From: a virus | IMG/VR virus record: IMGVR_UViG_3300036945_001058 | Reading direction: 5' to 3' (one strand) | Length of the DNA: 64,000 nucleotides | Shown: one piece after another, positions 16,841-48,338 of the stretch | Layout of the letters: the number at the start of each line of letters is the position of its first letter | How positions within the stretch are numbered: the first letter of the stretch is position 1 | Program-made: the position numbers and the translations under genes | Notes under the pieces: generated by a model | Database searches by the model: none | Seen by the model: only the letters and a program-made list of their open reading frames with translations | What the model was told of the DNA's origin: nothing

Positions 16841-16981
16841 ATGAAAAAAGAATATGTCATTACGGGTTTAGCGATTTTAGGTGCTGTAGCATTATTTACT
16901 TGGTACAGTAGTAAGCCAAAGAAAAATTCAGACGGTTTTTTTAGTGCAACGGGTGGTTGTGGTTGTGGTTGCGGAGCATAA
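16841..16981 (+). CDS. small membrane protein ending FFSATGGCGCGCGA (46 aa, not in track)
   Basis: MKKEYVITGLAILGAVALFTWYSSKPKKNSDGFFSATGGCGCGCGA; TAATG overlap with next gene. Confidence 0.7.
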   Translation: MKKEYVITGLAILGAVALFTWYSSKPKKNSDGFFSATGGCGCGCGA

Positions 16982-17274
16982 TGGCTTACAAGATTTTTCC
17001 ATATTCTAAACAACAAGCGGGTAAATTAGGTGTTGAAATAAAACCCTCAACTAATGTATTGAAAAAAATTGATGTTTTTAAAGACGGTAAAAAAATCGCT
17101 TCGATAGGTGCAAGGGGTATGAATGACTACCCAAATTATTTAGAAAAAGAAAAAAAAGGAGCTTATCCCAAAGGGTACGCCAAAGAAAGAAGAAAACTAT
17201 ACAAGCAACGTCACGAAAAAGACCGTAAAAAAACGGGTACAAATGGGTGGTATGCAGATAAAATATTGTGGTAA
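16981..17274 (+). CDS. small basic protein resembling a family I recall from NCLDV/virophage/Polinton-like genomes (DUF5754-like, unverified)
   Basis: Likely start is ATG 16981; KKIDVFKDGKKIASIGARGMNDY...ERRKLYKQRH...GWYADKILW. Confidence 0.5.
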   Translation: MAYKIFPYSKQQAGKLGVEIKPSTNVLKKIDVFKDGKKIASIGARGMNDYPNYLEKEKKGAYPKGYAKERRKLYKQRHEKDRKKTGTNGWYADKILW

Positions 17275-17967
17275 ATGGCAGTATATACAAATATAATAAA
17301 CTTTATAAAAAGCAGAGAGGGTGGATTAAGTTCTACTACTACTGATACGGCATCAAAAAACCCTTCTAATTGTGATAATGGTTCTAACGGAAAGCCATAT
17401 CATACAAATAAAGGAGTTACTTGGGCTACTTTTAAAAGCCTGTCGAGTAAATTAGGGTATTCAGCTACTTGTGATAATTTTATTAAAATGCCAAACGATA
17501 TTTGGGGCAAAATATATAAAGATGGATTTTGGAATCCAATGCAAGGAGATAGAATAAAAAATCAAGCTATTGCAAATACGTTTGTTGAAATGGCTTGGGG
17601 AAGCGGATTAGGAAGTAACACTTCGGCAAAAGGAGCTATTCCGTATCTTAAAACCCTTTTTAAAACTAAATACAACAAGAATTTTGATAACATAACTCAA
17701 ATTGTAGATTACGTCAATGAATTAGATGAAAAAGGAAAAACACCAGAATTATTTGAAAACCTATATGACTTTAGAAAAAGCCTATATACTTCATTTAATC
17801 AACCATCAAACACAAAAGGTTGGATTAATCGTTTAGACGCTTTTTATCTGCTAAATAAACCTTACGCTTTATCAATTGGCGATAAATCAAAAATTATATT
17901 TGGAGTTTTATTAATAGTTGCAGGAGCAACATTATTTTATAAATATGGCAGAAGCAATTCAAAATAG
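17275..17967 (+). CDS. glycoside hydrolase family 108-like muramidase with C-terminal TM
   Basis: REGG motif, TNKGVT, YKDGFW, MAWGSG, GWINRL; hydrophobic C-terminus. Confidence 0.75.
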   Translation: MAVYTNIINFIKSREGGLSSTTTDTASKNPSNCDNGSNGKPYHTNKGVTWATFKSLSSKLGYSATCDNFIKMPNDIWGKIYKDGFWNPMQGDRIKNQAIANTFVEMAWGSGLGSNTSAKGAIPYLKTLFKTKYNKNFDNITQIVDYVNELDEKGKTPELFENLYDFRKSLYTSFNQPSNTKGWINRLDAFYLLNKPYALSIGDKSKIIFGVLLIVAGATLFYKYGRSNSK

Positions 17968-18139
17968 TCAAACAGGAACTTCAAAAGAAGAAGTTGACGC
18001 AACAATAAAAAAAGACGTAAATACACAAATTCACCAGCATTTGTCTACAATTTTTGTTGTGGTAGGTATTATATCTTTTACATTAGGTGCAATTGTAAAT
18101 TATTATACTATTCAAAGAATTAGAGGAGGAAAAGCATAA
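17945..18139 (+). CDS. small membrane protein
   Basis: Likely start is ATG 17945; TM LSTIFVVVGIISFTLGAIV. Confidence 0.65.
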   Translation: MAEAIQNSQTGTSKEEVDATIKKDVNTQIHQHLSTIFVVVGIISFTLGAIVNYYTIQRIRGGKA

Positions 18140-18567
18140 TGAAGATATTTGGACAAGTTTTAGATACAAGTAATGAGCCAATGGCTTTTGCGAATATCAC
18201 CATTATCACAGGTGCTAATGCTAATAAAATGGGTACGCAATCCGATTTAGATGGTAATTTTGTTTTAGAAAATGAAACTATTAATTCTGAATCTCAATTT
18301 AGGATTTCTTATATTGGATATAAACCTACATTTCGCAAAGCAAGCGAATTACAAGGGCAAAAAATAAAATTAGCTGACGATGTAGAAGAACTAGAAGAAG
18401 TTGTAATTAAGGTGGGTAAAAAACCGTTAAACTCTTCTTCTAAACCTGATGTCAAAGTTTCAAATAAACAAAAATTTGTTCAGCACTTAAAAGAACATAA
18501 AGTTATTTATGCAGGAATAGGTGGTTTGGCTGGAGTTTTATTAATTATTAATGCGTTTAAAAAATAA
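18139..18567 (+). CDS. carboxypeptidase-regulatory-like (SusC N-terminal type) domain protein with C-terminal TM
   Basis: IFGQVLD...EPMAFANI...GTQSDLDGNFVL...ISYIGY...LEEVVI. Confidence 0.75.
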   Translation: MKIFGQVLDTSNEPMAFANITIITGANANKMGTQSDLDGNFVLENETINSESQFRISYIGYKPTFRKASELQGQKIKLADDVEELEEVVIKVGKKPLNSSSKPDVKVSNKQKFVQHLKEHKVIYAGIGGLAGVLLIINAFKK

Positions 18568-18573
18568 AAAATT

Positions 18574-18933: not shown

Positions 18934-18942
18934 ATAAAAATT

Positions 18943-19263: not shown

Positions 19264-19409
19264 GTTGTCTCCCTAAATTAAAATGGATGGACACGCTTGC
19301 TAAAATGTTATAAAAAGAGACTAGGCATTAAAAAGATTTGTTATTTAAAAAAAAATAATATCTTTACCTAAATAATAATAAGCCAAGCAAATAACAACAA
19401 AATAAAACA

Positions 19410-19592: not shown

Positions 19593-19620
19593 AATCAATA
19601 ATAATTAAAAAATAGAAATT

Positions 19621-20599: not shown

Positions 20600-20905
20600 A
20601 TGACCACAAAAGATTTTATTTTAATAGGAGCAGGGGCGGTAGTCGGATACTTATTAGTAGGTGTTGTAAACAAGAAAAAAACTGTTTTGGATGAAACTAA
20701 AGATGCGACTGCTTTGCCAGATACATCTTCTCAAACATTACCACCAAATTCAACAACCGAAACTAAAGAATCAGTAGTTGACCCAAATTTGGTTATTTGC
20801 AATGAAAATTGGAATAAGTTTTCTAAAAACAAACGTTTTCGTTCACAACAGGACAAGCAAAGCACTTATGATAAGTTTATTGAAACTTGCTTAGTTAGAA
20901 CTTAA
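20600..20905 (+). CDS. membrane protein, probable paralog of 20337..20579
   Basis: N-terminal TM; CNENW...F...YDKFIETC. Confidence 0.7.
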   Translation: MTTKDFILIGAGAVVGYLLVGVVNKKKTVLDETKDATALPDTSSQTLPPNSTTETKESVVDPNLVICNENWNKFSKNKRFRSQQDKQSTYDKFIETCLVRT

Positions 20906-20918
20906 TAAAGAGAAATCT

Positions 20919-21566
20919 ATGGAATTTAATGATATAACCTATGGTAATCCGACTGTTCAAGAAATAAATTTCATTCAGAACAAAGGTTTGACTGACGACT
21001 TATTTGAAAAATTAAAACAGACCTTAAGTTTTCCTAAAAATGATTCGGAATTAGTCAAAGATGAACTCAACGAAATTGTAGATTGTTTAGCGACAATGAC
21101 ACAACCTGAAAACCAAAGTTTTTTAAAAAGATACCAATCTTATGATAGGAATTTAATACAGGCATTGACTGGCATCTTTAAAGAAAAAAACATTGATGTT
21201 GAAGAATTGTGTATTGATATTATTCAGGATATTCAAAGTTTGATTTATAAACTAAAGTATTATTATCAAAGACCAAGACCAAAGCAAATAGCTCAATATT
21301 ATAAGTTGAAATTATTCCCTTATAAAAGCTTTTCAGCACATACACCGTCTTTTCCGAGCGGACATTGCGTAGAAGCAGTTGTAATGTTAAATGTGATTGG
21401 AAATAAAAACCCAACGGAATATCCATTCTGTAAGGAGCTTATCGAAGATATTGCATATAGCAGAGTTTATTTAGGACATCATTATTCAAGCGACAACGAA
21501 GGAGCAAAACAAATGGCAAAAGAGATTTTAAAACATCCTGAATTTGTAAAAAAATATGGTATATAA
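20919..21566 (+). CDS. PAP2/vanadium-haloperoxidase superfamily phosphatase
   Basis: All three motifs present: KYYYQRPRP, PSFPSGH, SRVYLGHHYSSD. Confidence 0.85.
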   Translation: MEFNDITYGNPTVQEINFIQNKGLTDDLFEKLKQTLSFPKNDSELVKDELNEIVDCLATMTQPENQSFLKRYQSYDRNLIQALTGIFKEKNIDVEELCIDIIQDIQSLIYKLKYYYQRPRPKQIAQYYKLKLFPYKSFSAHTPSFPSGHCVEAVVMLNVIGNKNPTEYPFCKELIEDIAYSRVYLGHHYSSDNEGAKQMAKEILKHPEFVKKYGI

Positions 21567-21625
21567 ATAACAAAATAATACCAAGAAACTATACCAAGAA
21601 ATAATAACAACCAATAACAATTAAT

Positions 21626-22012
21626 ATGAAGCACGAAGAATATGAACTACAAAAAGCGGTAGCTCGTTATTTATCTCACCAGTATCCTGAAATTGACTTC
21701 TTTTCAGATACTATTGCCTCTGTAAAACTTACCGAAAGACAGTCGGGGCGTAATAAACTTATTCAAAAGAATGGTTTTAAAATGCCTGATATTGTACTTT
21801 TTGAGCCACGCCATAACTTTTGTGGATTACTTATCGAGCTTAAAATACAAACTCCTTTCAAAAAAGATGGAACTATTAAAGCATCTCAAAAAGACCATTT
21901 GAAACTACAACACGAATCTTTAATAAAACTAAATTCAATAGGTTATAAGGCGGTTTTCTCGTGGAATTTTGATATGACTAAAGAAATTATTGACGAATAT
22001 TTAAAACAATAA
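21626..22012 (+). CDS. VRR-NUC-like PD-(D/E)XK nuclease
   Basis: ExxLQ...PDI...LIELK...Q...L...GY. Confidence 0.75.
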   Translation: MKHEEYELQKAVARYLSHQYPEIDFFSDTIASVKLTERQSGRNKLIQKNGFKMPDIVLFEPRHNFCGLLIELKIQTPFKKDGTIKASQKDHLKLQHESLIKLNSIGYKAVFSWNFDMTKEIIDEYLKQ

Positions 22013-22014
22013 AT

Positions 22015-22443
22015 ATGGAGCAAGAAAACAACAACGTATCAAAGGTTTTTAAAGAATTAGATAAAACAATTCAAGTAATCGGAACAGAAAAACTTCTTGA
22101 AATATTAAAGTATTCAAGACTTACTACCACAAACATAAACGAAGCCCAAATAAACAGATGTTTAGAAATTATAAAAACAGTCTGCGATGAATTTGGAATT
22201 AGCGTAAGTGATTTTTTTGACACTAACAGAAAAATATTAAGAAGGGTTGCAATAGGCGTTTCGGCTTTTATAATCCAAAAGGAAATGAATTTAAGCAATT
22301 CTGATATTTCATATATTTTGAAAAAATCAGATGAGGCTGTTTCTTTATATAAACAAGAGATAATCAGATTAAATTCAAACCACCCACAAGACAAGCAAAT
22401 ATTAGAGAAAATAAAAAAAATAAGCGAAACTATTAAAAATTAA
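22015..22443 (+). CDS. DnaA C-terminal-like (HTH) DNA-binding protein
   Basis: IIKTVCDEFGISVSDF...RRVAIGVSAFII...LSNSDISYIL...V pattern. Confidence 0.55.
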   Translation: MEQENNNVSKVFKELDKTIQVIGTEKLLEILKYSRLTTTNINEAQINRCLEIIKTVCDEFGISVSDFFDTNRKILRRVAIGVSAFIIQKEMNLSNSDISYILKKSDEAVSLYKQEIIRLNSNHPQDKQILEKIKKISETIKN

Positions 22444-22450
22444 ATAAAAA

Positions 22451-23545
22451 ATGAATAACCAAGAAAACTACCAAGATGTAGAGATTGTTAATGATGACTT
22501 CTCTCCATTAGATGCTCCTGTAAAAGAAAGGGCATATACTCATCACAAAATAGACGAAACTCAAGTAATGCAAGACTTGGAAGAACCTACGTTTGAAAGA
22601 CCTAGTTTTTCAGACCTTGATGATACTGCCGAAGAAGGGGAACAAGAACCAGAAAGACCTTTTAATCAGTCCTACAGTGAGTTAGATGGGAAAGAGAAAA
22701 CTATGGGTGCAGAGATGATGGCTGATATGACATTAGACATTTATGATAAAGCTTGTTTTTATATGGGTAAAATACCAGAGATAAGCGAGTCAAAACTTGA
22801 TAAATTAATAGCAGAAGGGGAAATAGACCCATCAATTCAACTCCAGACAGAATCGGGCGGTATGGCTGTTAAAGATTTTGCCGTAGAGTTTAATGACAGT
22901 ATAAAAGATGCCTTTCAGGTTAGCGATGAATTTAAAGAAAAGGTAAAACCACCATTAATCCGTGTGTTCAAAAAACGTGGAATTGGAATGACCGATGAAC
23001 AGTTGTTGGCTTACTATTTCGTTACCGATTTAGGTGCTAAAGGTGCGCAAGCTTTTATGTTGAGAAAAACCGCTAATGGTATTTTAGATTCTTTGAAAGA
23101 AAACACAATAGCAATTAGAGAAAGTCAAATAAGAACTCAAGCACCACCTCCGCCAGCTCCGCAACAAGCATATCAAGAAAGACCAACTTCACAAGAAACA
23201 TATCCGAAACAGTCAAAAAGTTCTGATGACGAGTATTCTGCAAATATAGCAGAAGTAATTAGTGAGCCTGTTAAAAAAAATAAGAATGAAAAACCAGTTA
23301 GAAGAACGGCTAAAACAAATCTGGAAGAACAGGTTGCGTATTTTGAACCCGAAGAACAAGAGGTTTTTAGCAATTTAAAAGACAAAGATGGCTTTACTGA
23401 TAGTTTTCAAGACGTAGTAGGTATGCCACAGTACGGCGACCCATTAATGATGTCAGAATTAGAAAGGTTAAGTAAAAAAGACCCAACTAAACCTGTTAGA
23501 AAAGTAAGAACAACGGCTTTAAGAAAACCAAGAAATAAAAAATAA
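22451..23545 (+). CDS. hypothetical acidic protein with Pro/Lys-rich tail (possible assembly protein)
   Basis: 364 aa ORF near the ATPase gene. Confidence 0.6.
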   Translation: MNNQENYQDVEIVNDDFSPLDAPVKERAYTHHKIDETQVMQDLEEPTFERPSFSDLDDTAEEGEQEPERPFNQSYSELDGKEKTMGAEMMADMTLDIYDKACFYMGKIPEISESKLDKLIAEGEIDPSIQLQTESGGMAVKDFAVEFNDSIKDAFQVSDEFKEKVKPPLIRVFKKRGIGMTDEQLLAYYFVTDLGAKGAQAFMLRKTANGILDSLKENTIAIRESQIRTQAPPPPAPQQAYQERPTSQETYPKQSKSSDDEYSANIAEVISEPVKKNKNEKPVRRTAKTNLEEQVAYFEPEEQEVFSNLKDKDGFTDSFQDVVGMPQYGDPLMMSELERLSKKDPTKPVRKVRTTALRKPRNKK

Positions 23546-23547
23546 TT

Positions 23548-24258
23548 ATGGAACAATTTGATAAAAACCATTTGCAAGCATTAGATGTTATGGAAAGACC
23601 TGATAATTTAATACTAAAATACATAGACGGAGATTGGTATTTGTTATTCGGGGGGTGCTTCTCTACTCAACAAAAACAATTAAAATTTTATCTTCATTTT
23701 AATTCATATCAACTTAACATATTAGCTTCTACCAAAAAAATAGATGGTTGTTATTTGTTAGATAGGGAAGTAAAGTCTATGAATATAGGAAAAAGGATTT
23801 TAAGTTTAGATGATATAGACCCTTTAAAGAATTATTTAAAGGGAACGTCAGCATTGGTGGAAGATTCTATTTTCAATAAAAAAGAAAATAATGAATTTGA
23901 TTCACAAGAACCAAGTCAAGAAGAATTTTATAGAAAAGGATTTAATGATGCTTTGGAAATTTCTAAAATAGAAAATTTAAGATTAAACAATCAAAATATT
24001 TTTGACTTTAATTACGATATTATAGAAAATACTTTTTTTGTTGAAATTAACGTTTCTAATCTCGAAGATTTCCAATTTAAAGAACTTACCGAAATTACAG
24101 GTAAAGAACAGTCTTTGGATGGTAAAGCGATTACAAAATATGTCATTGATTTATTTACAAAATCTAATTACTTAATTCAACCCATTATTTTTGTTAAAAA
24201 ACACAGCAAAAAAATTGAGTGGTTAGAAAAGTTAAGTAAAGACGAAAAAAAAGAATAA
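23548..24258 (+). CDS. hypothetical protein
   Basis: 236 aa ORF. Confidence 0.6.
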   Translation: MEQFDKNHLQALDVMERPDNLILKYIDGDWYLLFGGCFSTQQKQLKFYLHFNSYQLNILASTKKIDGCYLLDREVKSMNIGKRILSLDDIDPLKNYLKGTSALVEDSIFNKKENNEFDSQEPSQEEFYRKGFNDALEISKIENLRLNNQNIFDFNYDIIENTFFVEINVSNLEDFQFKELTEITGKEQSLDGKAITKYVIDLFTKSNYLIQPIIFVKKHSKKIEWLEKLSKDEKKE

Positions 24259-24392: not shown

Positions 24393-25208
24393 ATGGAACA
24401 AAGAGAACCGAAATTAATTATTGTTGTGGGGCGTAAGGGTTGTGGGAAAACCTTTACAACCACGAAGCTCATTAATCAATACGCACAAGGAAATCCGTCT
24501 AAAGGTGTTCCTGCGAGAAGGGCTTTAATCCTCGATGTAAATGACGAATACGAACAATTTAAAGCACTAAAATTATCTGATATTATGAGATTTTCAGCAC
24601 ATCCTAAAATTGAAGTAAGAAGAATTAGACCGTTTCATGATAACGGGCTTAGAATGACGATTAGGGATTTACAAGAAGCTTTATCTAAAATACTTAGGGA
24701 TTTTAGAAATGGATTATTTCTTATTGAAGATAGTTCAAGAATTCTTGCTGATAGTTTATCTATGGATTTGATGGGAGCAATTGCCACAAGTAGGCATTTA
24801 GATATGGATATAATAATGCACTTTCAATCAATAGGAAGAATAACTCCTAAAATTTGGCAGAACCTCACGCACATTAGGTATCATAAACAAACGGATGGGG
24901 TAGAGAAAAACAAAAGTAAATTTGAAGATAAATACGAATTGTTAAAATTAGTAGAAAGTTATGTAGATGATGAGTATAATAATGGAAATCAAAGGTTTTA
25001 TTTATATATTGACGTAGAAGATGAAAAAATAAAAAATGTTGATTTAAAAAAATTCGACAGAATTGTAGAAGACTATGTGATTGAAAATCAGAAAAGATTA
25101 ATAGCTCCGTTGGTAAATAAGGGGAGTTTGTTAAAAAATACTAAAGCACAAACTGTAGAGCAAGCATTAAAACTACAAAAAGAAAGAATTATAAAATATT
25201 ACACATAA
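24393..25208 (+). CDS. FtsK/HerA-superfamily (poxvirus A32/PRD1 P9-like) genome packaging ATPase
   Basis: Walker A VVGRKGCGKT, ILDVNDEY, Walker B LFLIED, and an SRHxxxDIIMHFQS Arg-finger/sensor motif. Confidence 0.8.
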   Translation: MEQREPKLIIVVGRKGCGKTFTTTKLINQYAQGNPSKGVPARRALILDVNDEYEQFKALKLSDIMRFSAHPKIEVRRIRPFHDNGLRMTIRDLQEALSKILRDFRNGLFLIEDSSRILADSLSMDLMGAIATSRHLDMDIIMHFQSIGRITPKIWQNLTHIRYHKQTDGVEKNKSKFEDKYELLKLVESYVDDEYNNGNQRFYLYIDVEDEKIKNVDLKKFDRIVEDYVIENQKRLIAPLVNKGSLLKNTKAQTVEQALKLQKERIIKYYT

Positions 25209-25220: not shown

Positions 25221-26390
25221 TCATAGCCTTTTTTTTATTAGATGTTCAATATTTTGCCCTTGATTTAAAAGAAAAACTGCTCTATCATAAACACCTCTTG
25301 CTGATTCAGGATTATCATAAGAGCCTAAATTATTAGTTTTTCCCTTTATTGTTAATTTAGCCTGAAACTTATCGCCAGTCCTAAAAACACCTTTATATGT
25401 TTTATTTGGAGATTTTTTAGGATAAAAATGCTCTATTGATTTTCCTTCTAAAATTAATTTTTTAGCTTCCAAATATCTATTATTTGCTAAATTTACATCT
25501 GCAAAAGTACCTAAATCTTTGTTTAACCCATCTATATAAATCCTTACTCTAAACTTATCACGGCTTTTATGAACTCCTCTAAAATTTGTTTCGCTTATTT
25601 TAATATTTTCTGTAGGCATTACTTTACCTCCTTTATTTTTAATTTCAAGAGCTTTCTTATATTCTACTCCTGCTAATTCGGCAGTTTCAAAAACACCTAA
25701 ATTAACAAATTTATTATCTATAATAATTCTAGCTTGAAATGTACTTTTATTTTTACATACTCCCGTATATAAATTGATGTTGCTTCTTGTTTTTACTAAG
25801 TGCAAAATATCTTTATTACAATCTATCAATCTAACTGCTTCATTATATTTTTCAGATGCTTCTTCAGGAGTATTATAAGCCCCTAAATTAAGTAATTTTC
25901 CTTTGTGTTGAATTACAGCGACAAATCCATTTTTAATTTTAGAAACACCTGTAAATCCTGCTGAATTTATTTTGTCTTTTGAAATATTATTACGATGAGT
26001 GATTACTTGTAAATTAGAAAGCATATTATGCTCTTTCACATTATCTTTATGGTCAATTACCAGTTCATTAGTTCTTGGGAAATGATTTATAAAAGCAATA
26101 GAAACTAAATGATGTGTTAAATAACTTTTTAATTTTGAATCTTTATAAAGACCAACTGAATAATAAGCAACCCTTTTGCTTTGCTTCATTATTTTTTCTT
26201 TTGACAAAAAAGTTCCTTTACCAGAAGAATGATTTTTATAGCGGTCAAGTCTTTTTACCCTACCTAAATCACTTACTTGATACAGCTCTTCATAATCAGG
26301 AATATCTTTCCATTCCTCAACACATTCTAAACCCTCTCCGTTTAAGTAAACGATAGGCTCTAAACTAAAATCTAAATGATAGTTTGACAT
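25221..26390 (-). mobile_element. NUMOD4-HNH homing endonuclease with four AP2-like domains
   Basis: WKDIPDYEELYQVSDLGRVK (NUMOD4), IDHKDNVKEHNMLSNLQ (HNH), four xxGV...F.A.I...LG repeats; opposite strand to its neighbours. Confidence 0.85.
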
Positions 26391-27359: not shown

Positions 27360-27755
27360 ATGGAAGCTATGAAAGTTTTTTTATCAAATAAGATAAACTT
27401 ATTGATGATAATGGTTTGCTTAGTTTTTTGCTTTCAACTGGTTAGTTTCTTCAGCAATGGTAACGAGGTTGAAAAAAATAACTATATAAAAAAAGAAATT
27501 ACAAGCTTAAAAAAAGAGATAAAGTCTATTTATGAAGCAGAACACGCTTTAGATAAAAAGATAGATATTTTTAACCAGAGAATTGAAAACATACACGAAG
27601 CGGTAATTATTAATAACACAAAAATAGATAATCTAAAAAAATATGAAAAAATTCAAATTGATAAGTTTAAGTCTTATGATGCTCGTATGTGGGAGAAGTA
27701 TTTCGCAGACCGTTATGCAAAAAAAAGCTTACCCATTACAAACACAAGAAAATAA
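27360..27755 (+). CDS. probable inner spanin (Rz-like)
   Basis: N-terminal TM plus coiled coil, follows the endolysin, overlaps the next gene. Confidence 0.55.
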   Translation: MEAMKVFLSNKINLLMIMVCLVFCFQLVSFFSNGNEVEKNNYIKKEITSLKKEIKSIYEAEHALDKKIDIFNQRIENIHEAVIINNTKIDNLKKYEKIQIDKFKSYDARMWEKYFADRYAKKSLPITNTRK

Positions 27756-28086
27756 AGTAGTAATCGATACTTCGGTAGCAAGACTTATCGCTAATGACCT
27801 TGTGAGAGGAGATTTTTGTAAAGAGGAAATAAAGTTGGTTGTAAATAATCTAAACTTAACCAAGAAAGAGGTAGTGCTTAAAGATAGTATCATAGATACT
27901 TTAGAAAAGCAGAAAGATTACCTCGATTTGATTATTTCAAAAAAAGATAAAATGTTTGCCAACCAAGAAGAAATATCTAAGACCTTTAAAAAAGAACTTT
28001 CAAAACAAAAGCGCACAACCTTTCTTTATAAGTTTTTTTCTTTGCTAGGGGTCGCTTCTACAGCAATACTCATAGTGAAACCATAA
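27643..28086 (+). CDS. probable second spanin component
   Basis: Signal-like N-terminus with Cys (LMMLVC), coiled coil, C-terminal hydrophobic segment; 113-nt overlap with previous gene. Confidence 0.5.
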   Translation: MKKFKLISLSLMMLVCGRSISQTVMQKKAYPLQTQENKVVIDTSVARLIANDLVRGDFCKEEIKLVVNNLNLTKKEVVLKDSIIDTLEKQKDYLDLIISKKDKMFANQEEISKTFKKELSKQKRTTFLYKFFSLLGVASTAILIVKP

Positions 28087-28113
28087 TCTAAAAATATTAA
28101 AACAAAAACCAAA

Positions 28114-28353
28114 ATGTCAAACGTAAGCACGTATTTATCGAACGCACGTCAAAGTGCAATGGAATCTTTCTCAAATGCTGATGGATTCATCGACCAAGAT
28201 TTGAGTTTCACTAATTTGATTATTTCAAAAAAAGATGAAATATTTGTCAACCAAGAAGAAATATATAAGACTTTAAGAAAAAGAACTATCAAAAAAAAGA
28301 GAACAACATTTCTCTATAAAGTTTTTTCTTTTTTAGGAGTTGCTTCTACGTAA
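28114..28353 (+). CDS. chimeric ORF: capsid-candidate leader fused to a diverged copy of the spanin C-terminus
   Basis: 28092-28212 matches 28741-28860; 28214-28350 matches 27926-28061. Confidence 0.7.
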   Translation: MSNVSTYLSNARQSAMESFSNADGFIDQDLSFTNLIISKKDEIFVNQEEIYKTLRKRTIKKKRTTFLYKVFSFLGVAST

Positions 28354-28706: not shown

Positions 28707-28761
28707 TTAGGTGTAAAATCCGAGTAAAAAAATTAGTAAAAAATATTAAAACAAAAACAAA

Positions 28762-29457
28762 ATGTCAAACGTAAGAAGATATTTATCGAACGCACGTCAA
28801 AGTGCAATGGAATCTTTCTCAAATGCTGACGGATTCATCGACCAAGATTTGAGTTTCACTGGTGATGATTTCTTTAGAGCAGATGGGGGTATGGGTCAAC
28901 AAGATATTCAAACATCTCAACCCTACATAATCAACGTGACTTCTACATCAGGGTCAGCAGTTGCAAACTTTAGTGTACTTGGTTCTTTCCAATACATTAA
29001 CAATACAGGATTTGTTAATGGTTCATTAACCATTGGTTCTATTACAATTAGTTCAGGTATTCCTGACATCACTTATCAAGAGATGTTATATCAATTTATG
29101 AATAATCCTTATTCAGTTGGTTTAACTTACATTCAATCGGCTACTACAAATCAAGTTTTACAAACTTTGTCTGTAAACACGAGAGATGCGAATGGTAATT
29201 TAGCACAAAAAACTTTAGTACCTACTATTGACCCTTACCAACAACAAACCAATATTGTTGCGATGAAGTATGCTTACCGTATTGATGGTTTTACAAAAAT
29301 CATTATTGCTCAAGTATTAGCTAACGCTACTGTATCGTTATACTTCTACCCTGCTGATAACATCAACCTTTCGAGAGCATTGGGCGGTCAACCAGTAAGC
29401 AGACAATTCGGAACACCTCCTGTAACTAATGGACAAACCATCAAGTTAAGAGCGTAA
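28762..29457 (+). CDS. candidate major capsid protein (single jelly-roll-sized beta protein with acidic leader)
   Basis: Alternating beta-strand patterns; promoter upstream and strong terminator downstream; clear paralog at 48687; leader carries FSNADG and FFRADGG. Confidence 0.55.
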   Translation: MSNVRRYLSNARQSAMESFSNADGFIDQDLSFTGDDFFRADGGMGQQDIQTSQPYIINVTSTSGSAVANFSVLGSFQYINNTGFVNGSLTIGSITISSGIPDITYQEMLYQFMNNPYSVGLTYIQSATTNQVLQTLSVNTRDANGNLAQKTLVPTIDPYQQQTNIVAMKYAYRIDGFTKIIIAQVLANATVSLYFYPADNINLSRALGGQPVSRQFGTPPVTNGQTIKLRA

Positions 29458-29552: not shown

Positions 29553-29984
29553 ATGAACGTATATGAATATGTTGCGGATTCTAATCCAAGAGTAGCAGAA
29601 AAGATAATGAATTCATTTAATTATGACGCTATTAACAGTTCTGATATGGGATTAAGTCAATTAGTAAACAAGGTTGGAGAACCCGCTTTGCAAAAAATAA
29701 TGGAAAATCATCCAGATAAAGACATTATTTTAGAGTTATTCTCAAAAAAAGAAGATGAGAAAACTGATGGTTGCGGTTGTGATAGTTGTAAAAATAGAAA
29801 TAGAAGCAATGACGAACACCTTAATTATCTTAATGTAACTGGTAGTAATAAAGACGCTCCTGTTCCACCTTTAGCTAAGTCAAATGATTCTTCTACAAAC
29901 ACACATTTATTGGCAAACCAAACAAATGTTATTTTAGTGGTATCTGCATTGTTTATAGCGACTGCATTAATCTTAAAAAAATAA
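29553..29984 (+). CDS. membrane protein with CGCDSC motif and C-terminal TM
   Basis: CGCDSCK, YLNVTG, TM VILVVSALFIATALIL. Confidence 0.7.
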   Translation: MNVYEYVADSNPRVAEKIMNSFNYDAINSSDMGLSQLVNKVGEPALQKIMENHPDKDIILELFSKKEDEKTDGCGCDSCKNRNRSNDEHLNYLNVTGSNKDAPVPPLAKSNDSSTNTHLLANQTNVILVVSALFIATALILKK

Positions 29985-29989: not shown

Positions 29990-30664
29990 ATGACAAAATT
30001 AAACGCAAATGCTCAAACTGGAGCATTAACATTGGTGTTACTTGTAAAATCATATAAACCCCAAATGATTGCTTTATTAGTTAAAAACGGAATAGTTGTT
30101 AATAATGATGCGTCAGACGAGCAAGTTGTTAAATTAATGGTTAACTTGTTGAAAGTTTCAAAGTCTTATTTTCAAGACCTGAATAACTTCGTAACAAACC
30201 CTGCCGTTGCAAATGTTATTGCTGGTGGTTTTGAACAAACAACTCAATATTTGAAAATGACTGGCGATGGTTATATGAATGTTGGTGGTTTTTTAGATTA
30301 CCAAATTCCTGATTCTCCTTTTGCAAATAGTTCAACAACAAATACTAGCTCTAAAACAGACACAGCTTCTTCTTCTTCTTTTTGGGGCGAGATGAAATCA
30401 AATATACCGAATTGGATAAGTGATGGAATTAAGCTGTTTGGAACAATAAGCACAAATAAAGCAAATGCTGAAATTGCAAATGCACAAGTTATAGTTGCAC
30501 AAAATGGTTCTGGAACAGGCGGAAACACAGACGGAAACACAGGCGGAAATGGAGGTAAAACACCTGATGAAGGAATGAGTACAACTTCAATTGTTTTATT
30601 GAGTTTACTTGGAGTTGCGGTATTAGGTACTGCAATATATTTTGTGGTAAAACAAAAAAAATAA
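29990..30664 (+). CDS. C-terminally anchored virion membrane protein
   Basis: YLKMTG and YMNVGG motifs, Gly/Asn linker, TM IVLLSLLGVAVLGTAIYFVV. Confidence 0.7.
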   Translation: MTKLNANAQTGALTLVLLVKSYKPQMIALLVKNGIVVNNDASDEQVVKLMVNLLKVSKSYFQDLNNFVTNPAVANVIAGGFEQTTQYLKMTGDGYMNVGGFLDYQIPDSPFANSSTTNTSSKTDTASSSSFWGEMKSNIPNWISDGIKLFGTISTNKANAEIANAQVIVAQNGSGTGGNTDGNTGGNGGKTPDEGMSTTSIVLLSLLGVAVLGTAIYFVVKQKK

Positions 30665-30679: not shown

Positions 30680-30907
30680 ATGCTTATAGACGAACAAATG
30701 TTATCAAAAATTATTGGAAGTTCTGTTGGTACTTATCCAAATAAAGTTGCTGGATTTCTTGTAAGTAATAAAATACTCGCACCTGCTCCGCAATACACCC
30801 TTGACCAATTGGTAGATGGTGTATTTCTTGGTTTAAATCAAAATCCAACCTTTACTCAAGAATATGGTTCTTGGTTGGAGCAAATTATAACTACATTAAC
30901 CTTTTAA
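30680..30907 (+). CDS. hypothetical helical protein
   Basis: 75 aa ORF with AAATAGAGTT-ATG context. Confidence 0.6.
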   Translation: MLIDEQMLSKIIGSSVGTYPNKVAGFLVSNKILAPAPQYTLDQLVDGVFLGLNQNPTFTQEYGSWLEQIITTLTF

Positions 30908-30918
30908 AAAATAATATT

Positions 30919-31236
30919 ATGGCTACTTGGGGAGATGTGTTAAAAGGTATTATACCGTCTTTAGTAGAGGGTGGAATAGGATTGTATGGAAACAAAAAAG
31001 CAAGTGATATAGCAAAACAACAAGCTAATGATGCAAAAGCTGTAGCTGAATTACAATATCAAACTGCTTTGGCAACCGAAAGAGCTAAAGCGTTAGAAAG
31101 AGCTAAAGCGTTAGAAAGTCAAGGCGGTGGAAAAACAACCGAAAAACCAAAAAGCAATACTGCTCTTTATATTGGATTAGGCGTTGGTGGATTAGTCTTG
31201 ATTGGTGCTGTAGTTTTTGCAGTTACAAGAAAATAA
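30919..31236 (+). CDS. membrane protein with Ala/Gln-rich coil and C-terminal TM
   Basis: Likely start is ATG 30919 (MATWGDVLKG); 18-nt ERAKAL repeat. Confidence 0.7.
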   Translation: MATWGDVLKGIIPSLVEGGIGLYGNKKASDIAKQQANDAKAVAELQYQTALATERAKALERAKALESQGGGKTTEKPKSNTALYIGLGVGGLVLIGAVVFAVTRK

Positions 31237-31603: not shown

Positions 31604-31741
31604 ATGGACAATAAAAAAATTTTAATGATAGGGTTATCGATTGTGGGTGTGTTAGCATTATTTGCTTATTTAAAACCAAAACCTAAAAGGAATTCAGAAG
31701 GGTTTTATGGAGCAAACGGAAAAAAACCAAGTGTTTATTAA
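31604..31741 (+). CDS. small membrane protein (45 aa, not in track), paralog of 16841..16981
   Basis: MDNKKILMIGLSIVGVLALFAYLKPKPKRNSEGFYGANGKKPSVY. Confidence 0.7.
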   Translation: MDNKKILMIGLSIVGVLALFAYLKPKPKRNSEGFYGANGKKPSVY

Positions 31742-33357: not shown

Positions 33358-34143
33358 ATGAATTTAAGGTTAGATACAAGATTTGAAGAAATGTGCTTGG
33401 TAGTTAAAGTTGGAGTGACAATGCCTACTAAAGTCAGAATTAAAATTTTTGATGAGCAAAAACCTAAAATTGTTTTTACGGACAGGTATAAAACAGTTAA
33501 CTCTGATTATACTTTTTTTGTACGTATGCCAATTACGTCTAAAAGTGTTATAATTTCAGTATATGACGATATAAAAGGTAACACACCTCAAAGTCAAGAC
33601 AATAATGTAAAAGTAGTTTCGGTTGATAAAACACCGTTAAAAAAGAGAATTGATGTGGTTGATATTCATAATCCAACTATCGCTTATTTTGTAGATTTTG
33701 CACAAAGATTTTGCTTTAATGCGCCTTATTTAGAGGCAAATAAATCTTATCAATCAGACAATGGTGGATTTATGATTGAGTACTTACCAACTATTATAGA
33801 TTCAAAAGGAAAAGAACTTACAACACCCGCTAGAATTTCAAGAATGACAGGGCGTATTCAAGTCTCTAAAAAACAATTTGATGAATACACTATTCCAATG
33901 CGTTTTGCGATTCTTTGCCACGAGTTTAGTCATTTTTACGTCAACGAAGATATGGGGGACGAAAGCGAAGCAGATTTAAACGGACTATTGATTTATTTAG
34001 GTCTTGGTTATCCGAGAATTGAAGCTTGTGAAGCTTTTTTAGAAGTTTTCGAACACTATCCAAGCCAAGAGAACAAAATGCGTTATGATAAGATTAAAAA
34101 CTTTATCGACAACTTTGAGAAAGATAATATTGTATTCAAATAA
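33358..34143 (+). CDS. zincin metalloprotease (HExxH plus downstream ExxAD)
   Basis: Likely start is ATG 33358; FAILCHEFSH...DESEADLNG. Confidence 0.7.
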   Translation: MNLRLDTRFEEMCLVVKVGVTMPTKVRIKIFDEQKPKIVFTDRYKTVNSDYTFFVRMPITSKSVIISVYDDIKGNTPQSQDNNVKVVSVDKTPLKKRIDVVDIHNPTIAYFVDFAQRFCFNAPYLEANKSYQSDNGGFMIEYLPTIIDSKGKELTTPARISRMTGRIQVSKKQFDEYTIPMRFAILCHEFSHFYVNEDMGDESEADLNGLLIYLGLGYPRIEACEAFLEVFEHYPSQENKMRYDKIKNFIDNFEKDNIVFK

Positions 34144-34725: not shown

Positions 34726-35448
34726 ATGGCAACTAAACCCATTAATGTAAATAAGGCTTTAACCCTAGTTTATTTCAATAATTTAATTCTTGGAGAATTA
34801 AGAAAAAACGGAATTAAATCTTGGATTGCAGGGGGTGTTTTGAGAGATTATTTTTCAGATAGACCGCTTAAGTCAGATTGTGATATTTTCTTTCCAAGCC
34901 TTTCGGAATTTGAAAAAACTAAAGATTATTTTATTTCCAAAGGAGGTAAAATAATTTGGCAAAGTGAAAATGGTATGAAAGTCACTTACAAAGGAAATAC
35001 TTTTGACTTGATAAAAATATTCACGCCTAATCCAATGGCTACTATTGGTCGGTTTGATTTTACAATTTCAATGTTTGCTACTGATGGTAGCGAGGTTTAT
35101 TATGGTAATAATTCGCTTAAAGACCTACAAGACAGGAAATTGGTAATAAATACGATTGTAAATCCCTTAAGCACACTAAAAAGAGTTTTAAAGCACTACA
35201 AAAAAGGCTTTACTATGTCTGCCGAAGAAACTAAAAAATTATATACTTCTTTAAACAATCTCCCTTATGATAATTCAGATGATTTGCTTAATGCAAATGG
35301 AACGTCAGGGGGTGGAGTTAAAGAAACTGTAATTGTAACAAAAGACGCTCCAATCGTTCCTGTTCCTCTTGACAATACGAAACATATCTTGATTGGGGTT
35401 GTTACTATTTTAGCTGTGTATGTGTTTTATAATGAATTTAGCAAATAA
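34726..35448 (+). CDS. poly(A) polymerase/CCA-type nucleotidyltransferase head domain with C-terminal TM
   Basis: WIAGGVLRD...SDCDIFF, FDLIK, RFDFTISM; LLNANG linker then TM ILIGVVTILAVYVFY. Confidence 0.75.
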   Translation: MATKPINVNKALTLVYFNNLILGELRKNGIKSWIAGGVLRDYFSDRPLKSDCDIFFPSLSEFEKTKDYFISKGGKIIWQSENGMKVTYKGNTFDLIKIFTPNPMATIGRFDFTISMFATDGSEVYYGNNSLKDLQDRKLVINTIVNPLSTLKRVLKHYKKGFTMSAEETKKLYTSLNNLPYDNSDDLLNANGTSGGGVKETVIVTKDAPIVPVPLDNTKHILIGVVTILAVYVFYNEFSK

Positions 35449-38102: not shown

Positions 38103-38249
38103 ATGAAAAGCTATATTGAAGGCGGTACAACCCCTGATTCTAAGATTGTAATAAATAAACCAAAGCCTAATTATACCAAAATTGGTATCATAGGTCTTAT
38201 CGGAGTATATGTAATTTACAAAGTGGTTTTTAATAAAAAAAGTAAATAA
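38103..38249 (+). CDS. small membrane protein starting MKSYIEGG (48 aa, not in track)
   Basis: MKSYIEGGTTPDSKIVINKPKPNYTKIGIIGLIGVYVIYKVVFNKKSK. Confidence 0.6.
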   Translation: MKSYIEGGTTPDSKIVINKPKPNYTKIGIIGLIGVYVIYKVVFNKKSK

Positions 38250-44191: not shown

Positions 44192-45010
44192 ATGAAAAAG
44201 ATTTTTTTTAATTCCTCCCTACCCCGTGCTGGGTCAACGTTAATTTCCAATTTAATTGCTCAAAACCCAGATTTTTATTGCACCCCTACCTCTGGACTAG
44301 CGGATTTGATATTAAACGCAAAAAACACTTATGCTCATTCACAAGCAATTTTAGCTCAAGACAAAATAGTTATGGAAAACGCTTTTTTGGGGTTTTGCAG
44401 AGCTGGTATGCAAGGTTTTTTTAATAACATTACCACAAAAGAATTTATTTTAGACAAAAGCAGAGAATGGAGTATTCACTATAACCTTTTAAATATGCTA
44501 AACGAAAACCCTAAAATCGTTTGTATGGTTAGAGATGTTCGTTCTGTTTATTCTTCAATGGAAAAAAACTTCCGAAAAAATCCACATAGGGAAAATCACA
44601 TTCAAAATGCACCGCAGTTAGTCGGCACTACATTAGATAAAAGAATAAATATTTGGGCAGATGGAATACCAGTTGGTGTTTCAATGGACAGATTAAAAGA
44701 CTGCATTCAGCAAGGTATAGCAAAAAAAATGTTGTTTATAAGGTATGAAGATTTAATGGTAAACCCAGAAATCGAAATGAAGCGTTTGTACGAGTATTTA
44801 GGCTTACCTTACTACGAAGCACACGATTTTGAAAATGTATCTCAATTAACCCACGAAAACGACCTTGTTCACGGTATCTACGGCGACCATACGTTAAGGC
44901 ACAAGTTTGAAATGAAACCAGACGACTATTATGATGTTTTAGGGTATGAATTATCCAATAAAATTAAGAATACCTATAAGTGGTTTTACGACTATTTCGG
45001 ATACGTTTAA
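44192..45010 (+). CDS. sulfotransferase
   Basis: SSLPRAGSTL (5'-PSB loop), DKSREW, MVRDVRSVYSS (3'-PB). Confidence 0.85.
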   Translation: MKKIFFNSSLPRAGSTLISNLIAQNPDFYCTPTSGLADLILNAKNTYAHSQAILAQDKIVMENAFLGFCRAGMQGFFNNITTKEFILDKSREWSIHYNLLNMLNENPKIVCMVRDVRSVYSSMEKNFRKNPHRENHIQNAPQLVGTTLDKRINIWADGIPVGVSMDRLKDCIQQGIAKKMLFIRYEDLMVNPEIEMKRLYEYLGLPYYEAHDFENVSQLTHENDLVHGIYGDHTLRHKFEMKPDDYYDVLGYELSNKIKNTYKWFYDYFGYV

Positions 45011-45017
45011 TATTTAT

Positions 45018-45779
45018 ATGATTTTTTTATTTACAGGGCAACCCCACGCAGGTAAGACAACATTAGCTAGATATTTACACTCTTTTTTATTAGAAAACTC
45101 AATAAAAAATACATTTTTAATCGATGGAGATGATTTGAGAAAAATAAATAATAATAAAGATTATTCGGAGCAAGGGCGTAGAAGCAACATAACCCAAGCG
45201 TTCTCAATAGCAAAATATTTAGATTCTTTAAACCACGATGCAATTATAGCTTTAGTTTCTCCTTACAAAGATATGAGGGAAGAACTAAAAGCAAATTCAA
45301 ACGTAGTTGAAGTTTATGTACACACTACAGAAAGAAGAGGTAGAGAGGGTTTTCACGTTGAAAATTATGAACCACCTACTGAAAACTACATCAATATAGA
45401 TACTACTGATGTAGATGAATTATCGTCTATGAACGAACTATTTAATCACATTCAAAAATTCATTAAAATGCCACCAGAAAAAAACGAGTTAAGCAAGTTA
45501 GATTCCGTTCAAAAATTCATCCTCGAAGGTAGAGAAGTCGTGCTGAAAAAAGAAGATGAAACTTCTTTTGTCCGCATATATAACAACAATTCAGCCACGC
45601 AATCTTCTGAAAAATGGTTGTTAATCATAAATGGTAATAAGTTTCATACAAGTGAAGTAAATATAAACTGCCGAACAAGAACCTTTACAGGTAAATTTGA
45701 AGATATGGATATTGAAAATCACATAGTTTGCGATGCAAATGAAGTAAAATTCAAAAACAACATAGCTACTATAATCTAA
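45018..45779 (+). CDS. cysC: adenylyl-sulfate kinase with C-terminal extra domain
   Basis: Likely start is ATG 45018; FTGQPHAGKTT, LIDGDDLR, DYSEQGRRSNI, LVSPY, YEPP. Confidence 0.8.
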   Translation: MIFLFTGQPHAGKTTLARYLHSFLLENSIKNTFLIDGDDLRKINNNKDYSEQGRRSNITQAFSIAKYLDSLNHDAIIALVSPYKDMREELKANSNVVEVYVHTTERRGREGFHVENYEPPTENYINIDTTDVDELSSMNELFNHIQKFIKMPPEKNELSKLDSVQKFILEGREVVLKKEDETSFVRIYNNNSATQSSEKWLLIINGNKFHTSEVNINCRTRTFTGKFEDMDIENHIVCDANEVKFKNNIATII

Positions 45780-46151: not shown

Positions 46152-46185
46152 AAAACAAAAATCATAATTAAAAAAAACAAGAAAC

Positions 46186-47061
46186 ATGTCAACAATAATA
46201 TTTTCTATCGAGGGTGGTCTTGGAAAGTCAATAATGGCTACCGCAGTATTAAAAGCAATTAAAAAACAATATAAAAAGTCAAATATCATTGTTATTACTG
46301 CTTATCCCGATGTTTTTATCGCTAATCCAAACGTGAATAAAGTTTTAAAATTCGACCAGTTAAACGGAATTTACGAAAAAAACATTATGAATAATAAAGA
46401 CTGTAAAGTTTTTGTTGCAGACCCTTACCATACTTCGGATTTCATCACAGAAAGTAAACATCTGATTCAAATTTGGTGTGAAATGTATGGTGTAAAATAT
46501 GATGGCGAAATGCCAGAATTGTTTTTGCTTAAAGCAGAAAAAGAATACTTTGAGCCTTTTTACAGATTGGATAAGCCTATTATGGCAATTCAACCAAACG
46601 GAGGTGCGATAAATCAACCTTTAAAATATTCTTGGACAAGAGATATTCCTGCTCCAATAGTAGAGGAAGTGATTGAGTGCTTTAAAAACGATTACGCTAT
46701 TTTGCATATAAAAAGGGAAGACCAAATAGCATATCCAAACACACTTCAAGCCCTTGATAACTTCAGAAGTATTGCGGTTTTATTAATTATGTCGAAAAAA
46801 AGATTATTGATTGATAGTAGTGCAATGCACATAGCGACTGCTTTGAATTTACCTTCAAATGTTGCTTGGATAGGTACAAATCCTAAAGTTTTTGGTTACG
46901 ATATTCATACAAATATTGTTGCGAACCAACCGACCAGAGAGCTTGATTTAAACCACTCACATTATCAAAAACATTTGTTGTTTCAAGATATTAGCACAAT
47001 TCCTTATAATGATTTAAGCGAAGTTTTTGATAAAAAATTGATAATTAATTCTTTGAAATAA
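46186..47061 (+). CDS. glycosyltransferase, GT9-like
   Basis: EGGLGKSIMATAVLKAIKKQY, IDSSAMHIATAL. Confidence 0.75.
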   Translation: MSTIIFSIEGGLGKSIMATAVLKAIKKQYKKSNIIVITAYPDVFIANPNVNKVLKFDQLNGIYEKNIMNNKDCKVFVADPYHTSDFITESKHLIQIWCEMYGVKYDGEMPELFLLKAEKEYFEPFYRLDKPIMAIQPNGGAINQPLKYSWTRDIPAPIVEEVIECFKNDYAILHIKREDQIAYPNTLQALDNFRSIAVLLIMSKKRLLIDSSAMHIATALNLPSNVAWIGTNPKVFGYDIHTNIVANQPTRELDLNHSHYQKHLLFQDISTIPYNDLSEVFDKKLIINSLK

Positions 47062-47117
47062 TTATTCAAAGAATTAATTTTGTAATATTGCTATATTTAT
47101 AAAAATTAAGTGGTAAA

Positions 47118-47621
47118 ATGGAGGATTTAGAATTAACAGATACAATAAGGCAAGGAATTGTTTTTAAAGCGGACGGTTCAAACTTTATGGAGCAACTAGA
47201 GTGTATTGAAAATTTGTTAATTAGCAGTAATTCATCAGATATAATTATAGGCAATTCAGACGAGTTGCCTTTAACTCATTCTTTTTCTGATGGCATATAT
47301 GTCAGAGAGATTTTTATTCCAAAAGGAATGTTTGCAATTGGAAAGGTTCATAAACTGAATCACACTTTCTTTTTAATGAAAGGAAAAATGCTGTTGTATA
47401 GCGAAAGAGGTGTAGAGGAGATTGAAGCTCCTTATTATGGAAATTCAAGTGCGGGAACAAAAAGACTTGTTGTCGCTTTAGAAGATATGGTCTTTGTAAA
47501 TGTATTTCCAAATCCAAACAATATAAAGGAAGTAGACAAATTAGAAGATATATTTTATGCTTCTTCTTATGAAGATTTTCAGAATTATAAATCGTTAAAA
47601 AAACAATTATGTCAGGAATAG
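47118..47621 (+). CDS. cupin-fold protein
   Basis: HSFSDGIYVREIFIP...GKVHKLNH...GTKR. Confidence 0.7.
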   Translation: MEDLELTDTIRQGIVFKADGSNFMEQLECIENLLISSNSSDIIIGNSDELPLTHSFSDGIYVREIFIPKGMFAIGKVHKLNHTFFLMKGKMLLYSERGVEEIEAPYYGNSSAGTKRLVVALEDMVFVNVFPNPNNIKEVDKLEDIFYASSYEDFQNYKSLKKQLCQE

Positions 47622-47956
47622 CGGTAGCAGGGATAGCTGTGTCGGTTGGAATGGGTTTTTTTTCTGCGGAATCAGCAAAAAAACAGTCTGAAAAACAAAT
47701 GGCTCAATTATGGAATCAAGAAACTATGAAAATAGCTTCTCAAGAAAAACTTTTTCTGGAGCAAATTCGCACTGAAAACGAAACAGAGCTTATCAAAATA
47801 TTTTCAGAAGATATGTTGAAATATCGAGAAGCTTTACAAAAAGAAAGTACAATTAGACTTCGTGATACTTGGATTTATGTCGCTGGTCTTGGTGCTGGGA
47901 CAAGTGCTATATACGCCGTTTCTTTAATGTATTCCAAATCAAAAACAAATGGATAG
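47609..47956 (+). CDS. virion membrane protein (Gly/Ala-rich N-terminus)
   Basis: MSGIAVAGIAVSVGMG; C-terminal hydrophobic segment. Confidence 0.65.
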   Translation: MSGIAVAGIAVSVGMGFFSAESAKKQSEKQMAQLWNQETMKIASQEKLFLEQIRTENETELIKIFSEDMLKYREALQKESTIRLRDTWIYVAGLGAGTSAIYAVSLMYSKSKTNG

Positions 47957-48338
47957 TATTTTTTTTAATGTTGGAGGTGAAAGCGTAGCAAGTGGTAGTA
48001 CTAGCGGAATAGCTGGGTATAGCGATGTAATTAAGATTGTTGCCGATTTAGGGATTCAGTATTTGTACGCTAAAAAAGAAAAAAAAAAATACGAAGAGTT
48101 AATCCAACGAATAAGCGAGCTTAATACTCAAGAAAAGGAAAAGTTAAAAAAACTTTTAGAAAAGTCTCTAAATGAAGTTGCTAAAACGCAAGTGATAATT
48201 GAATTTCTTAACGAAAAAAAAATAAATGATTTAGAAGCTGAAACTAAAAAAAAGAGAATTGTATCTTTAATTGCGTTAGGCATTGGGGTAATTATAATGG
48301 GATTAATGTTTTATAAATTAAATAAGCAAAATGGATAA
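47949..48338 (+). CDS. membrane protein starting MDSIFFNVGG
   Basis: FFNVGG motif; C-terminal TM. Confidence 0.7.
   Translation: MDSIFFNVGGESVASGSTSGIAGYSDVIKIVADLGIQYLYAKKEKKKYEELIQRISELNTQEKEKLKKLLEKSLNEVAKTQVIIEFLNEKKINDLEAETKKKRIVSLIALGIGVIIMGLMFYKLNKQNG

Follow-up and report, generated by a model that had tools for sequence, protein, structure and literature searches.

A conserved aromatic-x-Asn-Ala-x-Gly motif in capsid-like and membrane proteins of a freshwater virus group: a possible tag for proteolytic maturation

Why should one short peptide recur in the leaders and linkers of otherwise unrelated proteins of a single virus? The question is raised by a 64,000-nucleotide stretch of DNA from an uncultured freshwater virus of bacteria (IMG/VR record IMGVR_UViG_3300036945_001058; the whole stretch is termed the window here), a densely coding sequence of 31% GC in which a plus-strand block, running from 1 to 51 kb, is followed by a minus-strand block. 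Most of its proteins are orphans, and about half of the plus-strand genes between 14.8 and 50 kb encode a single hydrophobic helix. A first-pass annotation, made from the letters alone, listed peptides of the form [FYL]-x-[NSG]-[AV]-[DTNG]-G in the leader of a capsid-like protein and in membrane proteins, and proposed that they belong to a genome-wide maturation cleavage code. Each listed peptide is present in the open reading frame (ORF) to which it was assigned, and the DNA coordinates have been verified. Refinement of the motif gives [DE]-[DNG]-[FY]-x-N-[AV]-x-G. It is a genuine feature, conserved clade-wide and hitherto undescribed, with proteolytic maturation as a plausible function. A literature search found no description of the virus group or of the motif.

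In the plus-strand genes between 14.8 and 51 kb, the original expression has nine matches, compared with 1.1 expected from shuffled sequences; it has none in minus-strand genes, and none in the giant polyproteins. Because the expression had been fitted post hoc to these same peptides, this count is circular and independent tests were therefore run. Across the window and 40 related loci, the forward expression finds 138 matches and the reversed expression 17. De novo enumeration of 32,153 gapped patterns with four fixed positions, over 98 protein families, returned 'aromatic.NA.G' as the most enriched pattern kept in at least five families (9.6-fold, compared with 4.8-fold for the runner-up), the runners-up being glycine-zipper patterns of transmembrane helices. 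In 18 distant relatives, fetched via a different gene and not used in defining the motif, there are 71 forward and 10 reversed matches, distributed over 13 families, several of which lack a homologue in the window. When conservation of the key motif columns was scored against flanks of ±12 residues, the values were 0.76 and 0.09, respectively, in the family of gene 29553 (33 unique sequences), 0.88 and 0.66 for the first copy in the capsid-like leader, 0.74 and 0.62 for the second, and about 0.60 and 0.33 in a family of small anchored proteins. The orthologue comparison suggested by the first-pass annotation thus finds a conserved island amid variable flanks across the forty related loci.

The carriers comprise at least ten unrelated families of capsid-module and membrane proteins. 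Position weights place acidic residues upstream and the aromatic and Ala residues three apart, within a disordered region. A lineage-specific shift of the consensus, which would be a sign of co-evolution with a reader, amounted to no more than a slight bias towards Asp at position 5 in the distant relatives. Matches in cluster 36 (YMSVEG) were discarded as false positives lying inside hydrophobic helices, and EF-hand-like and isopeptide interpretations were rejected, as the positions that they require vary.

One carrier is the capsid-like jelly-roll protein itself (231 residues; 28762-29457, plus strand), which has 1500 homologues at 80-95% identity and consists of a conserved leader of ~45-50 residues and a body beginning at TSQPYI. 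In the AlphaFold2 (AF2) model, the leader is disordered, with a predicted local distance difference test (pLDDT) score below 40, and the body is a beta-sandwich with weak jelly-roll fold matches (Z 4-5). Because the model is of low confidence (overall pLDDT 56.7) and the matches at Z 4-5 are to generic jelly-roll or nucleoplasmin folds, the protein is a plausible capsid component rather than an established one. The leader harbours two copies of the motif. The first, FSNADG (28816-28833, plus strand), reads F[SA]NADG in almost every one of 30 orthologues, with FIGVDG and YSNWTG as variants at 43-52% identity. The second, FFRADGG (28870-28890, plus strand), follows GDD and forms part of a conserved G[DE]DFF-x-A-x-G; it is present as listed, but the Arg at position 3 breaks the very expression under which it was listed, and orthologues read FFNAGG, FFGANG and similar. 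After the Gly of this copy, the linker is hypervariable in sequence and length up to the conserved body start. Paralogues share this body start, and have either unrelated, Lys-rich leaders or none.

The closest whole relative possesses five jelly-roll-body paralogues, at 25-34% identity, of which only one has the motif leader. Paralogue sites are located at L047:6650-7174, 14648-15112 and 17225-18418, in L049 (G001 59233-59928) and L051 (G001 97286-97750), and at 48687-49154 of the window; searches for related loci with 48687-49154, and likewise with 16330-16824, returned no relatives. A chimeric ORF specific to the window (28114-28353, plus strand; repeats D1 and D2) fuses duplicates of two segments, the leader with its FSNADG and the anchor of 27643-28086. 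It lies in a region (28089-28353) composed of two local duplications, in which promoter and leader are 91% identical to 28737-28860 and the anchor end 82% identical to 27643-28086, and it is found in 0 of 40 loci.

A second setting is a family of small N-anchored proteins, represented in the window by FFSATG (16937-16954, plus strand) in the 46-residue product of 16841-16981 and by FYGANG (31703-31720, plus strand) in its 45-residue paralogue, 31604-31741. In the 53 members of this family, a transmembrane anchor is followed by a retained KPKKNS[DE]GF[FY]x[AM]xG, beyond whose final Gly the proteins are hypervariable, some ending there and others continuing into a CGCG tail, four-Cys mini-domains or larger modules; some members are little more than anchor and motif. 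Up to seven tandem copies occur per genome. Judged from sequence, this architecture is of the propeptide plus mature peptide type and would support cleavage. At L001:14343-16509, seven tandem paralogues with the same anchor and motif and differing Cys-rich or larger C-terminal modules form a diversifying cassette array. The tripeptide Cys-Gly-Cys is ~124-fold enriched, conserved in four families and often adjacent to the motif, as in FFSATGG-CGCGCGA (16955-16981), FSNA-CGCGGH (L033:18987-19307) and the CGCDSC upstream of YLNVTG (29553-29984); it could serve in metal binding or lipidation.

The placement of the motif is most clearly delimited where two genes have been fused or split. Next to 29990, the window has a motif-less split pair (30680-31236, plus strand), consisting of gene A, which encodes a soluble protein of 75 residues (30680-30907), and gene B, which encodes an anchored one (30871-31236). 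In L010, L016, L027, L031 and L038, the two form a single ORF with one to three motif copies at residues 80-110; A aligns to residues 1-85 and B from residue 95-108 onwards, so that the motif lies exactly between them. Where A and B are separate genes, as in the window, L001, L014 and L026, the motif is gone, and split forms usually lack it. In L011, L012 and L015, which are without gene A, it is located at the extreme N-terminus of B. As the motif sits at the fused junction and is usually lost upon splitting, it belongs to the junction and not to either domain. This is the placement that a processing site would predict, and it favours cleavage.

The remaining carriers present a more varied picture. 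YLNVTG (29826-29843, plus strand), in 29553-29984, follows a helical domain that contains a CGC box and precedes a C-terminal anchor, and is retained as [YF][LM]N[AV]xG in all 34 aligned sequences, within a linker that is otherwise unalignable. In 29990-30664, a tandem pair, YLKMTG-DG-YMNVGG (30248-30289, plus strand), corresponds to one to three strict copies in 32 of 39 orthologues, at 35-46% of their length, and to arrays of up to 4-5 looser copies in L003, L022 and L028. LLNANG (35284-35301, plus strand), in 34726-35448, directly follows a nucleotidyltransferase-like domain (residues 24-134; PHROG nucleotidyltransferase, 5e-11) and precedes a linker and C-terminal anchor; it is conserved only among close orthologues (n=7). 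FSNVDG (33150-33167, plus strand), in 33024-33356, is weakly conserved in close relatives, about a third of which have the region deleted, and in distant relatives the family has F.NADG in 12 of 18. FFNVGG (47961-47978, plus strand) occupies residues 5-10 of 47949-48338, the G001 orthologue having FLNAGG at residues 7-12, and extreme N-terminal copies also occur in clusters 67 and 89. The suggestion that the motif sits in leaders or between a domain and its membrane anchor is supported, the settings being the capsid-like leader, the N-anchored family, the tethers of 29553, 29990 and 34726, extreme N-termini and tandem arrays of two to five copies. Anchor topology, as judged by charge, is ambiguous.

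The motif was originally regarded as part of one code with a Gly-Gly type, aromatic-[AES]-x-G-G, which occurs in the giant polyproteins. Both share an A-x-G core, as had been noticed, but they mark disjoint sets of proteins. The polyproteins of the window, G004, G001 and G002 contain 32, 52, 37 and 24 Gly-Gly sites, respectively (reversed control 1-5), and 0, 0, 1 and 0 strict copies of the second motif. In all other proteins, each genome has 5-8 copies of the second motif (reversed 0-2), and the Gly-Gly type does not rise above its reversed control. Only about a quarter of copies of the second motif have a Gly directly after them. Since the two types divide between the polyproteins and the other capsid-module proteins, there are two codes rather than one. 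Two further peptides that had been attached to the series, YIEGG (38112-38126, plus strand; residues 4-8 of the small anchored protein 38103-38249) and LKEGG (60587-60601, minus strand; two residues before the stop of 60578-61537), are indeed conserved, with orthologues reading YVGGG or YVDGG in the first case and a G002 orthologue (34% identity) ending FEKGGKI in the second, but both are of the Gly-Gly type. The product of 60578-61537 (minus strand) is Lys-rich and ends hydrophobic-x-x-Gly-Gly-x-Ile-stop, reminiscent of ubiquitin-like precursor tails. In relatives, mid-size ART-PolyVal ADP-ribosyltransferase proteins (2e-48), which also use the Gly-Gly motif, are encoded upstream of the giant polyproteins (L048:668-3881; G001 20668-23884).

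What, then, reads the second motif? As the leaders and tethers of ten or more unrelated proteins share one peptide, a single factor probably recognizes them all, and the likeliest such reader is a zinc protease whose gene lies in the same block. The candidate is a core gene (33358-34143, plus strand; 261 residues), which 33 of the 40 loci and each of the three whole relatives possess, with 90-93% identity among close ones. Its HEFSH sequence (33919-33933) is followed by E-x-E-A-D, and 22 sequences show no variation at H188, E189, H192, E202, E204 or D206. The AF2 model is confident (pLDDT 86.5) and comprises an N-terminal beta sandwich and a C-terminal helix/sheet/helix/helix domain of M48-like appearance, in which the HExxH and the downstream Glu lie on helices 179-195 and 202-215. 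The best structural match is the M48 protease BepA (Z 8.6, root-mean-square deviation 4.0, 117 residues), followed by the Zn peptidase 3c37 (Z 6.8), Ste24p (Z 6.8) and ZMPSTE24 (Z 6.5), these four being the only non-sandwich matches among those listed. Foldseek with the same model matched only the N-terminal sandwich, and a sequence-profile search of the PDB returned nothing. Protein language-model neighbours (M48, DUF4344, U49 and M78, at 0.81-0.84) serve as leads only. On the basis of the model, the protein is a candidate M48-like zincin. A predicted complex of the zincin, residues 1-60 of the capsid-like leader and Zn scored 0.07 (mark 0.32), which decides neither way.

Other proteases were considered. 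A papain-like LRAT/PPPDE gene (49090-49611) is a poor candidate for a clade-wide function, as it is present in only two of five complete relatives. Among the Pfam matches listed (the best 25 of 67 families, for 84 window and 10 G001 proteins), there is no clan CE cysteine protease of the Ulp1 or adenain type and no C39 peptidase.

These observations allow a mechanism to be proposed. The motif would act as a short linear recognition tag, whose carriers are read by one virus-encoded factor during virion assembly. This reader would be the core zincin, cutting at or beside the tag, and the cut would remove the ~45-residue leader from the capsid-like jelly-roll protein and elsewhere separate domains from membrane anchors or from each other. 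Cleavage by the zincin is the reading that best unites four observations: the position of the motif at the A/B junction, the architecture of the leader, a family resembling propeptides and the presence of a core protease in the block. In addition, the motif has small residues, Ala and Gly, at a fixed spacing and an A-x-G core in common with the polyprotein motif, and stand-alone and fused zincins have been proposed as processors of polyvalent proteins (PMC5512222). The motif and its conservation, its disordered surroundings, its place at the A/B junction and the presence and fold of the zincin are observed; we infer that the zincin is the reader, that it cuts and that it does so at the tag. 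Taken together, cleavage of the tag by this enzyme during maturation appears nearly as probable as not.

Several observations weigh against such cleavage. Copies lie 4-10 residues from the N-terminus (47949; gene B of L011, L012 and L015) or 1-5 residues from the C-terminus (FYNMYGY-stop, FYGMSGSYYR-stop), where a cut would free only 1-10 residues. Tandem arrays of two to five copies with a period of 6-9 residues are more typical of binding motifs that act through avidity. The suggestion that cutting frees cargo from anchors consequently does not fit several N-terminal, C-terminal and tandem copies. The structural match of the zincin (Z 8.6) is moderate and no significant peptidase match was found in Pfam, where the M48 threshold was missed and the best hit was SprT-like (E 0.26). 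Alternatively, the substrates of the zincin might be the Gly-Gly polyproteins or targets in the host, and the motif itself points to no single cut position.

The terminal copies and the tandem arrays are better accommodated if the motif is never cut and serves as a docking peptide, with its acidic tract, its aromatic residue and the Ala at i+3 occupying a groove on a common hub; a scaffold, the beta-sandwich of the zincin or the jelly-roll protein could each serve as that hub. By docking there, the capsid-like protein and certain membrane proteins would be gathered where virions assemble, or the membrane would be linked to the shell. It would account for proteins that consist of little beyond an anchor and the motif, for the upstream acidic residues and the three-residue spacing of aromatic and Ala, for the DDFF units repeated in cluster 92 as in the capsid-like leader, and for the occurrence of the motif on both capsid-like and membrane proteins. 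However, the loss of the motif when A and B are split implies that neither domain needs it alone, some orthologues lack it altogether (the 33024 and 37474 families) and the candidate hub is only putative. We regard docking without cleavage as possible, if doubtful.

Cleavage and docking need not be opposed. By analogy with the capsid-targeting sequences of phage T4, a tag that serves for docking before being trimmed would reconcile them. In its fullest form, this leads to a tag-and-trim system for a clade of 70-100 kb bacterial viruses, in which the aromatic-A-x-G-G motif dices the giant cargo polyproteins, and the second motif, resembling the eukaryotic FFAT peptide, brings the jelly-roll protein and a subset of ~50 small membrane proteins to a hub where the novel M48-like zincin trims them. 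As a complete scheme this is tentative and rather unlikely to be correct in every part.

Three further explanations fare less well. The composition of the motif (aromatic residues with Asn, Ser and Gly), its tandem repetition and its disordered surroundings would suit a self-associating low-complexity sticker, similar to low-complexity aromatic-rich kinked segments (LARKS) or to phenylalanine-glycine (FG) repeats, which, with no dedicated reader, would hold disordered tethers to one another, either in an assembly condensate or at the interface of membrane and shell. The Asn, Ala and Gly are, however, conserved position by position across unrelated families and distant lineages, which points to a specific reader; a sticker is very improbable. 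Very improbable, too, is a site of post-translational modification, either Asn glycosylation or sulfation by the sulfotransferase and adenosine 5'-phosphosulfate (APS) kinase that the virus encodes at 44192-45779; YLN[AV][ST]G fits an N-x-S/T sequon in most of the 29553 family, but most other copies (FSNADG, YMNVGG, FYGANG) have no Ser or Thr there, Phe often replaces Tyr, and the Asn is often Gly, Ser, Arg or Lys. That the motif reflects no more than chance or composition caught by a degenerate pattern, as the post hoc expression, its failure to match FFRADGG and the poor conservation of the 33024 copy might suggest, is scarcely credible, being contradicted by the de novo enumeration, the reversed controls, the out-of-sample lineages and the conservation islands.

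Beyond the motif carriers, the virus has several recognizable genes. A core HerA/FtsK-like P-loop ATPase of 271 residues (24393-25208; DUF87 2e-5, AAA_14, Zot; PHROG 'terminase large subunit' 3e-9) is of the type known as the packaging ATPase of tailless membrane-containing viruses; profile searches of the window and of the ten largest G001 proteins outside its range detected none of the HK97 capsid, portal or tail-tube families. Other recognizable genes encode PAP2, SLT and GH108 enzymes, RecT and methyltransferases. The sulfotransferase (1e-17) is followed by the APS-kinase-like P-loop protein (9e-16), together forming a sulfation pair in a virus. An HNH/NUMOD4 homing-endonuclease gene (25221-26390, minus strand) lies on the opposite strand within the plus-strand core block and is present in two of the 40 related loci. 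Whole relatives are 73-102 kb in length and complete according to CheckV. Megablast and tblastn found no match to the virus among deposited phage genomes; in freshwater metagenomes the group is abundant, with 1500-1900 homologues for each of two core genes, none annotated. A 132-kb contig (L108), assigned to a Sediminibacterium (Bacteroidota) bin of metagenome-assembled genomes, encodes the capsid-like protein at 91% identity. This is a weak hint of a Sediminibacterium-like Bacteroidota host, other bins with matches belonging to unrelated phyla and probably representing binning noise.

Shared virion tags are known in adenoviruses, poxviruses, African swine fever virus (ASFV) and T4; to our knowledge, none has been described for tailless membrane-containing bacterial viruses. 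If true, tag-and-trim would be an assembly system new for membrane-containing prokaryotic viruses. The elements that are new here are the placement of the motif at the A/B junction, the core zincin within the block and the two disjoint codes. A six-residue tag and a candidate zincin offer a direct experimental handle on how the particle is built, the tag picks out the virion proteins among dozens of orphan membrane proteins, and it provides a simple sequence rule for the annotation of relatives.

Among the closest known systems are the maturation-cleavage sites of adenovirus, ASFV and poxviruses. Adenain cleaves at (M/I/L)XGG-X and (M/I/L)XGX-G, the ASFV protease pS273R at GG-X and poxvirus I7 at AG-X; poxviruses also need the metalloprotease G1. 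In common with these, the motif described here has a short consensus, hydrophobic upstream and with small Ala and Gly residues, it occurs in several structural precursors, and a second, related type of site coexists with it. In contrast, aromatic-x-N-A-x-G has no Gly-Gly requirement, a zincin is the candidate for the enzyme, copies at termini or in tandem are numerous, and cleavage is putative. In phage T4, which is tailed and has the HK97 fold, capsid-targeting sequences are cut off by the prohead protease gp21, a serine protease that recognizes L/I-x-E. Here too an N-terminal tag is shared by unrelated proteins. In T4 the tag directs these proteins to the particle under assembly before it is removed; in this virus tags are also internal and beside membrane anchors.

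The eukaryotic FFAT motif (EFFDAxE in an acidic tract) binds the MSP beta-sandwich of VAP in membrane tethering. It is likewise disordered and often multiple, with an acidic tract, one or two aromatics and an Ala three residues after the aromatic, a resemblance that serves as a lead and not as a test; it differs in ending in Glu rather than Gly and in having no conserved Asn, and an MSP-like partner here is putative. The double-glycine leaders of bacteriocins and of ribosomally synthesized and post-translationally modified peptides (RiPPs), which are cut by C39 peptidases, resemble the small anchored family in combining a conserved leader ending in small residues with a hypervariable Cys-rich core and tandem paralogues. 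Unlike them, the leader here is a membrane anchor, most leaders end in x-G and not G-G, and neither a C39 peptidase nor an ABC transporter was seen among the listed Pfam matches. Finally, Iyer et al. 2017 (PMC5512222) described polyvalent proteins with zincin metallopeptidase (MPTase) domains and proposed the zincin as the processor of multi-domain virion cargo. The likeness lies in the presence of both elements in the same genomes and in the zincin as proposed processor; the zincin considered here differs in being a stand-alone, M48-like core gene, and the carriers of its putative tag are small capsid-module proteins rather than polyvalent arrays.

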